Source: an uncultured Candidatus Saccharibacteria bacterium
GTDB taxonomy: Bacteria > Patescibacteriota > Minisyncoccia > Minisyncoccales > JAGGXC01
DNA: 40,881 nt
Assembly (NCBI GenBank): GCA_964391535.1
Contig: CAYMMJ010000001.1
Coordinates: 1 to 40,881 of the forward strand
Reading direction: 5' to 3'
In this document: piece after piece, positions 950 to 40,400 of the stretch
How positions within the stretch are numbered: position 1 is the stretch's first letter
Layout: each line of letters starts with the position of its first letter
The notes under the pieces: generated by a model
Database searches by the model: none
What the model was told of the DNA's origin: nothing
The model's input: only the letters and a program-made list of their open reading frames with translations
Program-made: the position numbers and the translations under genes

Positions 950-1543
950 ATGTCTAAATTCATTCTTGGAAAAAAATTAGAAATGTCTCAAATCTTTAAG
1001 GAGAACGGAGAAGTAGTTCCGGTAACTTTAGTTGAGGCAGGACCTTGTCAAGTGGTACAGGTAAAAACAAAAGAAAAAGACGGATATGGAGCGGTGCAGA
1101 TAGGATTTGAGAAGATTAAAAAACAAAAAAAGGTAAAAAAGACGATGAAAGGAAAAGAATTTAAGTATCTTAGAGAATTCAAAGGAACCCAAGATTTAAA
1201 AGTTGGAGACCAAATAGATGTCTCTATTTTTAAGGAAGGCGAAAAAGTAAAGATTTCGGGCTTTTCCAAAGGAAAAGGTTTTCAAGGAGCAGTGAAGCGA
1301 TGGGGTTTTTCTGGCAGAGGAGCTTCTCATGGAGTAAAACATGAGGCTCGCACTCTGGGTTCGGTGGGATCTTCCTTCCCTCAAAGAGTTATTAAAGGAA
1401 GAAAAATGCCCGGGCGCATGGGATTTAGGAGAGTGACAATAAAAAATTTAGAAATAGTAAAAATAGATAAAGCAAATAATATTTTAGTGATTAAAGGCGC
1501 CATACCTGGAAGAAAAGGCACGTTATTGGAAATTCAAGGATAA
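950..1543 (+). CDS. rplC: 50S ribosomal protein L3 (uL3)
   Basis: KGKGFQGAVKRWGFSG..ASHG motif and operon position. I prefer ATG 950 (MSKFILGKK...) over the in-frame TTG at 938 used by the ORF track. Confidence 0.93.
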   Translation: MSKFILGKKLEMSQIFKENGEVVPVTLVEAGPCQVVQVKTKEKDGYGAVQIGFEKIKKQKKVKKTMKGKEFKYLREFKGTQDLKVGDQIDVSIFKEGEKVKISGFSKGKGFQGAVKRWGFSGRGASHGVKHEARTLGSVGSSFPQRVIKGRKMPGRMGFRRVTIKNLEIVKIDKANNILVIKGAIPGRKGTLLEIQG

Positions 1544-1574
1544 AAAATGCACCTTTGGCTTTTGCCTCCGGTGC
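1542..1574 (-). terminator. Intrinsic terminator for the minus-strand mini-gene
   Basis: Minus-strand read: GCACC-GGA-GGC-AAAA-GCC-AAA-GGTGC followed by ATTTTTT. The U-tract is the complement of A1542-1547 and overlaps the rplC stop codon. No T-run follows the same hairpin on the + strand. Confidence 0.55.
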
Positions 1575-1603
1575 CGAAAGAACAAAGAGAGAAAGGATTA
1601 TTT

Positions 1604-1643
1604 TCTCGGATGCGTAACTAGCATCTCGGATGTGTAAGTAGCA
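1604..1643. repeat. 20-nt direct tandem duplication (18/20 identical)
   Basis: TCTCGGATGCGTAACTAGCA (1604-1623) is immediately followed by TCTCGGATGTGTAAGTAGCA (1624-1643). It spans the stop codon of the minus-strand mini-gene. Confidence 0.85.
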
Positions 1644-1812
1644 TATCTGCTATGGTATATATAGTGAATAGGAAGACTGCTGCAAATGTACATATTACCA
1701 TTTTTGTCGCTGATTCTCCGGTTATATAGTAATACACTGCTAGAGCCGCGCTTATCCCTGATACTGTTAATAGAAGTTCTACTCCAGCAAATAGCCACCA
1801 CCATTTATTCAT
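1618..1812 (-). CDS. Small hydrophobic protein (64 aa, two predicted transmembrane helices), antisense to the S10 operon
   Basis: ATG 1812 is preceded by GAGGTGAT (1823-1816). Hydrophobic segments are WWWLFAGVELLLTVSGISAALAVYYYI and MVICTFAAVFLFTIYTIADMLL. It has its own promoter and terminator (separate features). I recognise no family. Confidence 0.6.
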   Translation of the reverse strand: MNKWWWLFAGVELLLTVSGISAALAVYYYITGESATKMVICTFAAVFLFTIYTIADMLLTHPRC

Positions 1813-1839
1813 TTCATCACCTCATTGAGTTACGTTATA

Positions 1840-1868
1840 ATTTTAACATAAAATTTTATGAATGTCAA
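1840..1868 (-). promoter_or_regulatory. Sigma70-type promoter for the mini-gene: TTGACA-17-TAAAAT
   Basis: Reverse complement of 1863-1868 is TTGACA, overlapping rplD codons 2-4. A 17-nt spacer follows, and the reverse complement of 1840-1845 is TAAAAT. Predicted TSS is near 1833, giving a ~20-nt leader that contains the SD. Confidence 0.55.
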
Positions 1869-2505
1869 GGTGTACAATCAAGAGGGAAAGAAAACAGGAG
1901 AGATTTCTCTTCCAAAAGAGATTTTTGGAGTTGCGCTTAACTCTGATTTGGTTCATCAGGTGGCTGTTTCTCAAATGGCTAATCGCAGAAAACCAATTGC
2001 TCACACAAAAGACAGAGGAGAAGTTTCAGGAGGGGGAAGAAAACCGTGGCGTCAAAAAGGAACAGGACGAGCAAGGCATGGTTCTATTCGTTCTCCTATT
2101 TGGATAGGAGGAGGTGTGGCTTTTGGGCCAAGGAAAGAGAAAAGATTTGAGAAGAAAATTCCCAAGAAAATGAAAAGAAAAGCATTATTTATGGTTCTGT
2201 CCGCTAAAGCAAAGGAAGGTTTATTAATAGTGATTGAAGATTTGAAGTTGGAAAAAATTAAAACTAAGCTAATAACTAATATTTTGAATAAACTTCCGTC
2301 AAAGAATCAAAGCTGTTTGGTTGCTTTGCCAAAGGTTGACAAGAATGTGGTTCTGTCTGCCAGAAATATCCCTAAGATAGAAACAATAGAAGCACGCAAC
2401 CTGAATGTCTTAGACCTGCTCTCTTTCAAGTATTTGATAATGCCCAAGGATTCAATAAAAGTGGTTAAAGAAACTTTTCTTAAAAAAGAAAATAAGAAAA
2501 AATAA
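1858..2505 (+). CDS. rplD: 50S ribosomal protein L4 (uL4)
   Basis: GGGRKPWRQKGTGRARHGSIRSPIWIGGGVAFGP motif and operon position. Confidence 0.95.
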   Translation: MNVKVYNQEGKKTGEISLPKEIFGVALNSDLVHQVAVSQMANRRKPIAHTKDRGEVSGGGRKPWRQKGTGRARHGSIRSPIWIGGGVAFGPRKEKRFEKKIPKKMKRKALFMVLSAKAKEGLLIVIEDLKLEKIKTKLITNILNKLPSKNQSCLVALPKVDKNVVLSARNIPKIETIEARNLNVLDLLSFKYLIMPKDSIKVVKETFLKKENKKK

Positions 2506-40293: not shown

Positions 40294-40365
40294 GCCACCT
40301 TAGCTCAATGGTAGAGCAACGGTTTTGTAAACCGTAGGTTCGCGGTTCGAGCCCGCGAGGTGGCT
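40294..40365 (+). tRNA. tRNA-Thr (anticodon UGU)
   Basis: Acceptor GCCACCT/AGGTGGC. D-arm AGCTCAATGGTAGAGC. Anticodon stem ACGGT/ACCGT with loop TTTGTAA. T-arm CGCGG-TTCGAGC-CCGCG. Discriminator T. CCA is not encoded. Confidence 0.9.
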
Positions 40366-40372
40366 ATAGGAC

Positions 40373-40400
40373 TTGACAAGTAATTTTGGAAAGATAAAAT
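40373..40400 (+). promoter_or_regulatory. rRNA operon promoter TTGACA-16-TAAAAT
   Basis: -35 at 40373-40378 and -10 at 40395-40400, about 190 nt upstream of the 16S 5' end. Confidence 0.55.

Follow-up and report, generated by a model that had tools for sequence, protein, structure and literature searches.

The 40,881-nt stretch of contig CAYMMJ010000001.1 analyzed here (the window) comes from a Parcubacteria bacterium of the Candidate Phyla Radiation (CPR). Within its S10 ribosomal protein (r-protein) operon, the spacer between rplC and rplD carries, on the opposite strand, an apparent gene for a 64-amino acid (aa) hydrophobic peptide, flanked by its own putative promoter, Shine-Dalgarno (SD) sequence and intrinsic terminator. 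Comparison with related genomes indicates that this cassette is a real, old and fast-evolving accessory gene lying antisense inside the operon, and we consider it very probable that a peptide is expressed from it. The wider proposal, that a genuine and independently expressed accessory gene meets the S10 operon head-on, is gated by it and encodes a toxin-like membrane peptide, is in our judgment evenly balanced. That the peptide is toxin-like and inversely coupled to operon activity is a tentative suggestion.

Expression signals of the antisense cassette

The rplC–rplD spacer measures 314 nt (1544–1857), running from the rplC stop codon TAA (1541–1543) to the rplD ATG (1858), and the junctions adjoining it are only 1–11 nt long. 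An earlier note, drawn up from the DNA letters alone, had described a self-contained antisense expression cassette in this spacer; every feature that it listed was read back directly from the sequence (Table 1), and homologous peptides were found at exactly the same position in relatives. A metagenome contig from the Joint Genome Institute (L084), which shares 99.6% identity with the window along 4.3 kb, has the very same spacer from end to end, and hence the cassette is not an assembly artefact of one data set.

The minus-strand promoter places its two hexamers 17 nt apart (1846–1862), the intervening DNA ending in TGT and containing the rplD start codon, and is conserved in relatives. A promoter scan scored it as an 11/12 consensus match with an extended −10 TG, the best site in the first 12 kb. 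Since five further 11/12 sites occur elsewhere in the window, a single antisense match is not decisive by itself. At loci L081, L082 and L002 the −10 region reads TGT-TATAAT, giving a 12/12 promoter. A promoter-like TTGACA-16-TAAAAT was also observed on the plus strand at 40373–40400, between a tRNA gene (40294–40365) and the start of the 16S rRNA gene (40585). This putative 16S promoter and the antisense promoter use identical hexamers, suggesting that these are genuine promoter elements in this organism.

The SD sequence GAGGTGAT (1823–1816, minus strand) is followed by a 3-nt gap and the ATG at 1812. Its duplex with the canonical 16S tail was calculated at −13.0 kcal/mol, the strongest among the 47 gene starts of the window and, as the note had claimed, the only strong one. 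The second-best start reached −8.8 kcal/mol and most lay at about 0 to −3 kcal/mol; the other starts have A/T-rich upstream regions with no convincing SD. Initiation appears to be SD-independent throughout this genome. The canonical tail served as the reference for these energies, and the window stops 297 nt into the 16S rRNA gene, before its 3′ end; contigs that share the neighboring gene likewise break within the rRNA.

Downstream of the open reading frame (ORF), the terminator stem pairs GCACC (1574–1570) with GGTGC (1553–1549), with an inner GGC/GCC pair, and is followed by an A (1548) and six T residues (1547–1542). The fold has an energy of −14 kcal/mol (z = −2.9), the U-run overlaps the rplC stop codon, and the structure is conserved in relatives. 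Read on the plus strand, the same hairpin is followed by CGAAAGAAC with no T-run, and no plus-strand terminator was found in the rplC–rplD spacer; the anticipated read-through by the operon is consistent with both observations.

The predicted peptide has two long hydrophobic segments and a grand average of hydropathy of 0.98. Its structure model contains helices at residues 4–31 and 36–60 (predicted local distance difference test score 72), and a two-helix membrane hairpin is therefore the predicted product. The tandem duplication at the 3′ end of the ORF moves the stop from the ancestral AGA-AAA-TAA to TAG and nearly recreates the C-terminus, which ends in MLLTHPRC in place of the ancestral-type MLVTHPRK.

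Table 1. Positions of the cassette features and of the flanking genes in the window (UTR, untranslated region).
Feature	Positions	Strand	Basis
rplC (uL3), upstream flank	950–1543	+	Pfam PF00297
Intrinsic terminator, hairpin with A-U6	1542–1574	−	Folding; kept in L002, L081 and L082
Pyrimidine-rich conserved 3′UTR (GAGAAAATAATCC..TCTCTCTTTG.TCTTTCG)	1575–1617	−	Identity to L081 and L082
20-nt tandem duplication at the ORF 3′ end, two copies, 90% identical	1604–1643		Also in L084
64-codon ORF with TAG stop, encoding MNKWWWLFAGVELLLTVSGISAALAVYYYITGESATKMVICTFAAVFLFTIYTIADMLLTHPRC	1618–1812	−	ORF call, hydrophobicity, structure model
Short 5′UTR (predicted) with SD	1813–1835	−	Start site inferred near 1833
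Extended −10, TGT-TAAAAT (TAAAAT at 1845–1840)	1840–1848	−	Sequence; promoter scan
−35 hexamer TTGACA, reverse complement of rplD codons 2–4 (AAT GTC AAG)	1863–1868	−	Sequence; promoter scan
rplD (uL4), downstream flank; codons 2–4 double as the antisense −35	1858–2505	+	Pfam PF00573, E = 2.4e-67

Distribution and variability among Parcubacteria

An exhaustive HMMER (phmmer) search of 1.84 billion representatives matched only two peptides, P0001 (71 aa, 59% identity to the window peptide, E = 2e-12) and P0002 (63 aa, 52% identity, E = 2.5e-7). Both genes lie antisense between rplC and rplD in a related Nealsonbacteria-like species. Locus L028 encodes an antisense peptide, P0003, that reached 20.2 bits with a profile built from the three peptides; none of 2000 composition-matched shuffles exceeded 11.0, and P0003 is by this measure a remote homologue. 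Its gene occupies the rplC–rplD spacer on six contigs. A protein profile search recovered P0001–P0003 only, and the peptide profile, run against metagenomes, hit nothing beyond the window's own species, L081 and one L082-like contig. The antisense rplC–rplD arrangement was seen in L081, L082, L083, L086 and L089–L092. The family core can be written SGI..A.AVY.YI.G....I..F.A.FLF and includes 22 invariant columns. The 64-aa sequence could be assigned to no known family by profile search: the window peptide and eight others, related or analogous, gave nothing above the cut-offs in Pfam, PHROGs and NCBIfam. The window peptide was also absent from 5.8 billion non-redundant protein clusters in a word-indexed search, in which the L014 peptide likewise had no match, and neither the peptide profile nor the terminator DNA matched any viral contig.

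The three close alleles differ by 27–36 substitutions in 48–50 alignable core codons, together with in-frame indels, and all are open. When substitutions were placed at random, the frame stayed open in 17–28% of core trials and 4–8% of full-length trials, and hydrophobicity was kept as well as observed in just 3–10% of simulations. Retention of the ORF, retention of hydrophobicity and the remote homologue together indicate that the ORF is a real coding gene.

The same layout was also encountered with other peptides in a survey of ~49 Patescibacteria rplC–rplD loci. The spacer is 0–20 nt in most of these. Five (L014, L028, L029, L040 and L045) have a long spacer, each with a short antisense ORF of 57–77 aa; four of the peptides have two hydrophobic segments and that of L045 has one. 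In each of the five, the best promoter scores 11–12/12 with TTGACA placed exactly at rplD +11 to +6. Four of the ORFs are preceded, at 6–9 nt spacing, by a long AAGGAG/GGAGGTGAT-type SD (L014 has only a weak GGTGA), and four are followed by a clear minus-strand terminator (in L028, a U7 run at the rplC stop is all that is present). The terminators of L040 and L045 come directly after the ORF and do not abut rplC, abutment being found where the cassette fills the spacer. Homology of the L014, L029, L040 and L045 peptides to the window family was sought and is not detectable, L028 alone being related. The architecture is thus present in at least six divergent Parcubacteria lineages (window, L002/L081/L082, L014, L028, L029, L040 and L045), which share only 48–85% identity in ribosomal protein L4 and are scattered on an L4 neighbor-joining tree. 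Most of these unrelated or barely related peptides are preceded by a properly spaced 8–12-nt complement of the canonical 16S tail, and this conservation suggests that the tail is intact and that the cassette messages are special in using it.

The association between cassette and rplD extends to the coding sequence of L4. TGTCAA at rplD codons 2–4 was found at all eight cassette or remnant loci and at three of the 37 cassette-free loci (Fisher p = 8e-7, not phylogeny-corrected). Codon 2 must then end in T (Asn, Leu or Ser), where Lys is usual, and the N-terminus of L4 has therefore been shaped by the antisense −35. Loci L013, L017 and L030 keep TGTCAA but have no ORF, and their −10 is lost; the loss of the −10 together with the ORF argues that the promoter serves the ORF. 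The 94-nt spacer of L013 (2907–3000), which contains TGTCAA, reads AGGTGGGC-ATG-AAT on the minus strand, with a 6-codon ORF and no −10, and is probably the decayed remnant of a cassette like that of its sister lineage L014.

Insertions of other kinds were observed at the same place. The rplC–rplD spacer contains a plus-strand HicB/HicA-like pair in L038 (2450–3000), ~90-aa GIY-YIG ORFs between GC-rich repeats in L045 (1448–2259) and L056 (2225–3000), and a duplicated rplC 3′ end in L015 (2546–2724), so that it looks like an insertion hot spot. In the rpsJ–rplC spacer, minus-strand genes for hydrophobic peptides of 77 and 73 aa were noted in L029 (1739–1972) and L038 (1565–1786). Both genes have a strong SD and a terminator of their own, and their −35 elements (TTGACA or TTGACT) directly adjoin the start codon of rplC. 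Given the varied inserts in the two spacers, we regard the spacers of this operon as a recurrent home of small, possibly selfish genes.

L002, L081, L082, L083 and L086 belong to a single species with flanks of 98–99.9% nucleotide identity, and nevertheless carry three allele states: P0001 (L081), P0002 (L082, L083 and L086) and a deletion (L002). The P0001 and P0002 alleles are only ~50% identical although the strains are ~98–99% identical in the flanks, and the divergent block between L081 and L082 spans the ORF exactly from start to stop codon, with identical non-coding 5′ and 3′ parts. The L002 deletion removed ~210 nt, leaving the promoter, SD, first six codons and terminator, with a 19-codon remnant. 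Synonymous divergence (dS) between L081 and L082 is 0.48 in the peptide ORF and 0.015–0.06 in r-protein genes; between the window species and the L081 species the corresponding values are 0.37–0.50 and 1.0–1.3. Since dS in the ORF ignores the background dS, the alleles are decoupled from the host phylogeny, which could reflect old polymorphism or exchange between species; the two species occur in the same sample, JGI sample 3300013103, in which both L084 and L081 are found. Outside the ORF, their cassettes are 89% identical in the promoter and 5′UTR and ~95% identical in the 3′UTR and terminator (for L081 and L082 alike), with the remaining intergenic spacers at 44–81%. The ratio of nonsynonymous to synonymous divergence (dN/dS) of the ORF is 0.8–1.1 (~0.9), with differences falling equally on first, second and third codon positions; from these values, amino acid constraint appears weak beyond the keeping of a hydrophobic hairpin. 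The next species, L001, has a 7-nt rplC–rplD spacer and no cassette. Conservation of the ORF in relatives thus holds in part: three divergent alleles and a remote homologue keep the frame open, and it is deleted in L002, absent from L001 and has a dN/dS of ~0.9. Mutagenesis by a diversity-generating retroelement was considered as a source of the hypervariability and is unlikely in view of the in-frame indels, the unalignable C-terminal tail and a transition-dominated spectrum (no reverse transcriptase search was made).

As to the surroundings of the cassette, the plus-strand genes of the window run from tuf, inside which the window starts, through rpsJ, rplC, rplD, rplW, rplB and onward, and its 3′ end holds a tRNA gene and then the first 297 nt of the 16S rRNA gene; the GC content is 35%. 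Among one-genome-per-species GTDB contigs, the nearest L4 sequences, at no more than 85% identity, are those of Candidatus Nealsonbacteria and of other Parcubacteria/Patescibacteria metagenome-assembled genomes. No further copy of the cassette was found in the window, and its other long gaps carry the expected small genes (L29, S17, S14, IF-1, L36, L31 and ferredoxin). An Rfam scan of the spacer gave no family at the gathering threshold, r-protein leaders included, and only chance matches at permissive settings (E = 0.7–5). The window and L084 differ by 17 mismatches, twelve of which fall within 100 nt at 2498–2597, where the end of rplD and a lysine-rich N-terminal extension of rplW form a locally hypervariable, low-complexity region. 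In the rpsJ–rplC spacer, a 14-bp plus-strand hairpin (UGAGAAGCUGGGCU/AGCCCAGUUUUUCA, 907–937) runs into a stretch of U residues located 13 nt ahead of the rplC ATG. Its fold has an energy of −21.3 kcal/mol (z = −3.1), its core CTGGGC..GCCCAG-TTTTT is kept in L081, and the upstream AGCCTAG (897–903) could give an alternative pairing; it looks like an intrinsic terminator or attenuator within the operon.

Proposed mode of action and alternative explanations

In the mechanism that we propose, a sigma-70-type promoter, with its −35 taken from rplD codons 2–4 and its −10 just before the rplD ATG, would start a minus-strand RNA of ~290 nt near position 1833. In a genome where SDs are otherwise missing, the unusually long SD would bring in ribosomes, the 64-aa product would enter the membrane as a two-helix hairpin, and the transcript would stop at ~1545, where the hairpin and U6 abut the rplC stop codon. 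Because the cassette fills the whole spacer and no plus-strand terminator lies there, RNA polymerases transcribing the operon would cross the antisense promoter, and the operon mRNA would be wholly complementary to the peptide mRNA. Through promoter occlusion, collision and duplex RNA, peptide levels would be low during heavy r-protein transcription and would rise upon its shutdown. The peptide might then be active at the membrane, arresting growth or functioning under stress, and the operon transcript would take the part of the antitoxin. A toxin-like role seems the likeliest since the gene is dispensable, patchy in distribution and fast-evolving, shares its spacer with toxin-antitoxin (TA) and nuclease genes in other lineages, and has strong signals that need restraint.

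Likeness to type I toxins had been suggested in the earlier note, and part of it stood. Like the toxins of hok/sok, tisB/istR-1, fst/RNAII, txpA/ratA and bsrG/SR4, the cassette encodes a small membrane peptide of high hydrophobicity, transcription of the opposite strand runs across its mRNA (here by predicted operon read-through), its strong expression signals call for restraint, and it shows patchy distribution, quick sequence turnover and frequent loss. Unlike these systems, it has no dedicated short antitoxin RNA, its only antisense partner being an essential polycistronic r-protein mRNA, and no evidence of a folded, SD-sequestering mRNA was obtained. Convergent-promoter interference and excludon arrangements offer another parallel, in that a strong promoter points head-on into a neighboring unit and mutually exclusive outputs are expected. 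The cassette differs from excludon-type arrangements in measuring only ~330 bp, in lying wholly inside one spacer of an essential operon, in taking its −35 from the first rplD codons and in encoding a peptide; interference here is a deduction from the layout.

A holin-like nature, also raised previously, fared similarly. Class II holins such as S21 68 (~65–95 aa, two transmembrane helices, N-in/C-in) share with the cassette peptides a length of ~60–70 aa, two transmembrane helices, a short loop and a short polar C-terminus. The cassette has no phage context, its flanks being rplC and rplD; no endolysin gene lies nearby, no dual-start motif was seen, there is no PHROG match and no relative is found on viral contigs. 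Small two-transmembrane proteins of the Pmp3/YqaE (PF01679) and YtjA types, including stress-induced small membrane proteins, are similar in size and hairpin topology; these families, however, are conserved under purifying selection, whereas the window peptide is hypervariable and dispensable and matches nothing in Pfam or NCBIfam. Autogenous control of the S10 operon by L4, through the Escherichia coli S10 leader, is likewise a regulatory feature tied to rplD and the S10 operon. That leader is a plus-strand RNA to which L4 binds upstream of rpsJ, whereas the cassette is an antisense gene. By analogy, then, the nearest functional counterpart of the cassette would be a type I toxin module or a switch based on convergent-promoter interference. 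Full-text literature searches turned up no antisense peptide gene within an S10 operon and no type I toxins in Patescibacteria, and the arrangement, as had been surmised, appears to be undescribed.

Several observations weigh against the proposed mechanism. Transcription, translation, inverse coupling and toxicity are all deduced from sequence signals. No dedicated antitoxin promoter was found: the sole plus-strand promoter-like site in the spacer (1825–1854) matches 9/12, and its transcript would begin inside rplD without overlapping the peptide mRNA. Two transmembrane helices and 57–77 aa contrast with the one helix and 20–60 aa usual among type I toxins, and there is no detectable homology to type I toxin families in Pfam, NCBIfam or PHROG. 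Sequestration of the SD or 5′–3′ pairing within the mRNA was considered and is unsupported: full-length mRNA folds are no more stable than shuffles (z = −0.5 to −0.9), and SD/3′UTR pairing appears in the minimum free energy structure of L082 only, with a duplex no better than those of shuffled 3′UTRs. The ORF is dispensable, as evidenced by the conspecific deletion and the cassette-free L001, and a dN/dS of ~0.9 with flat codon-position differences is the pattern of neutral DNA. The plus-strand hairpin and U-run at 907–937 may cut the read-through on which the model depends. Finally, Tsurumaki et al. (PMC9297842) report that no more than 48% of the 16S sequences of Parcubacteria have a detectable CCTCCT anti-SD motif, so that about half have no detectable anti-SD and the function of the SD here is likewise read from sequence. 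Taken together, the interpretation given in the earlier note is supported in part: the gene is real and its layout conserved, and the regulatory and toxin logic is a plausible proposal.

Four other explanations were weighed. The peptide could be an ordinary accessory small membrane protein, for instance a transporter modulator or an envelope or stress factor, that is strongly and constitutively expressed with neither coupling to the operon nor toxicity. Its expression signals are complete and strong, two-helix hairpins are common among benign small membrane proteins, and the promoter scan of the spacer found no antitoxin RNA. A terminator that acts on the minus strand only seems suited to protecting operon read-through and not to regulating it, and similar compact antisense peptide genes are found between rpsJ and rplC in L029 and L038. 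In a housekeeping factor of real use, however, one would not expect a dN/dS near 1, or ~50%-divergent alleles and a deletion in a 98–99% identical population, or so patchy a distribution; moreover, aiming a consensus promoter against the most heavily transcribed operon carries a high cost if the conflict itself has no role. We therefore consider this explanation unlikely, and the most serious of the four.

Alternatively, the antisense promoter and its RNA could be the functional product, throttling or processing the operon RNA so as to uncouple tuf-rpsJ-rplC from rplD onward, with the ORF as a passenger. This would fit the conservation of promoter, 5′UTR and 3′UTR/terminator far above that of the ORF, the dN/dS of ~1, the perfect promoter, SD and terminator that L002 retains around its deleted ORF, and the alteration of rplD codon 2 that perfects the −35. 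Nevertheless, the ORF stays open with in-frame indels and keeps its hydrophobicity in three alleles and a remote homologue, and a conserved long SD at the correct spacing would be pointless in a non-coding RNA. Earlier ORF losses (L013, L017 and L030) also lost the −10, the L002 deletion is simply recent, because the flanks of L002 are 100% identical to those of L081, and the transcript overlaps neither rplD nor its initiation region. An RNA-only function is hence quite improbable.

A third explanation sees in the cassette nothing but a selfish hitch-hiker at a site prone to insertions, maintained and spread among co-occurring Parcubacteria by homologous recombination through the conserved r-protein flanks, possibly with the aid of free-standing GIY-YIG nucleases, and of no benefit to the cell. 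The HicAB-like, GIY-YIG and duplicated rplC inserts in the same spacer, the decoupled dS of all allele pairs, the shared sample of the two species and the co-variation of the first rplD codons with the cassette are all in keeping with it. No nuclease or recombinase lies beside the window cassette, though, and the cassette was not found on viral contigs; the L081/L082 divergence, matched to the ORF from start to stop, is unlike random recombination breakpoints. Pure selfishness is, in our view, very unlikely, and it is compatible with a toxin function and so is not a true alternative to it. A functionless chance ORF in a decaying intergenic insert, for which the dN/dS of ~1, the flat codon-position differences and a second, nearly open frame might be cited, is scarcely credible in the face of significant homologues at the same locus, a promoter-SD-terminator architecture kept in at least six lineages and rplD codons that co-vary with the cassette.

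Significance for CPR bacteria

The genomes of CPR/Patescibacteria are tiny, few of their regulators are known, and experimental genetics is almost entirely lacking. If the proposed mechanism holds, a conserved antisense gene in the most conserved operon of bacteria would be a compact tie between a membrane-active peptide and the rate of ribosome synthesis. In its boldest form, which we think rather unlikely, the proposal would be that Parcubacteria carry an ancient growth-state switch in the S10 operon, in which operon transcription is the antitoxin, a halt in ribosome synthesis is the sole condition under which the peptide is made, and the ORF is held hypervariable by diversifying or balancing selection, giving trans-specific alleles in strains that are otherwise 99% identical. 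Under such a scheme, interactions at the membrane, either with phage or with the episymbiont's host cell, may underlie this selection, and the cassette would be one of few SD-dependent messages in an otherwise SD-independent translation system.

The cassette forces an amino acid change in L4 that perfects its own promoter, and it would provide a natural convergent-promoter system within an essential operon. It would likewise be a natural test of the SD mechanism in lineages that are otherwise SD-free and whose 16S rRNA is reported to have, in many cases, no detectable anti-SD. A 16S rRNA ending in an intact ...GAUCACCUCCUU in the lineage of the window would favor SD-driven translation, and its absence would make the conserved GGAGGTGAT puzzling. 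As a hypervariable small ORF with presence/absence polymorphism, the gene can be traced in metagenomes. Routine gene calling misses such genes, as evidenced by the absence of the window peptide from the protein clusters searched.

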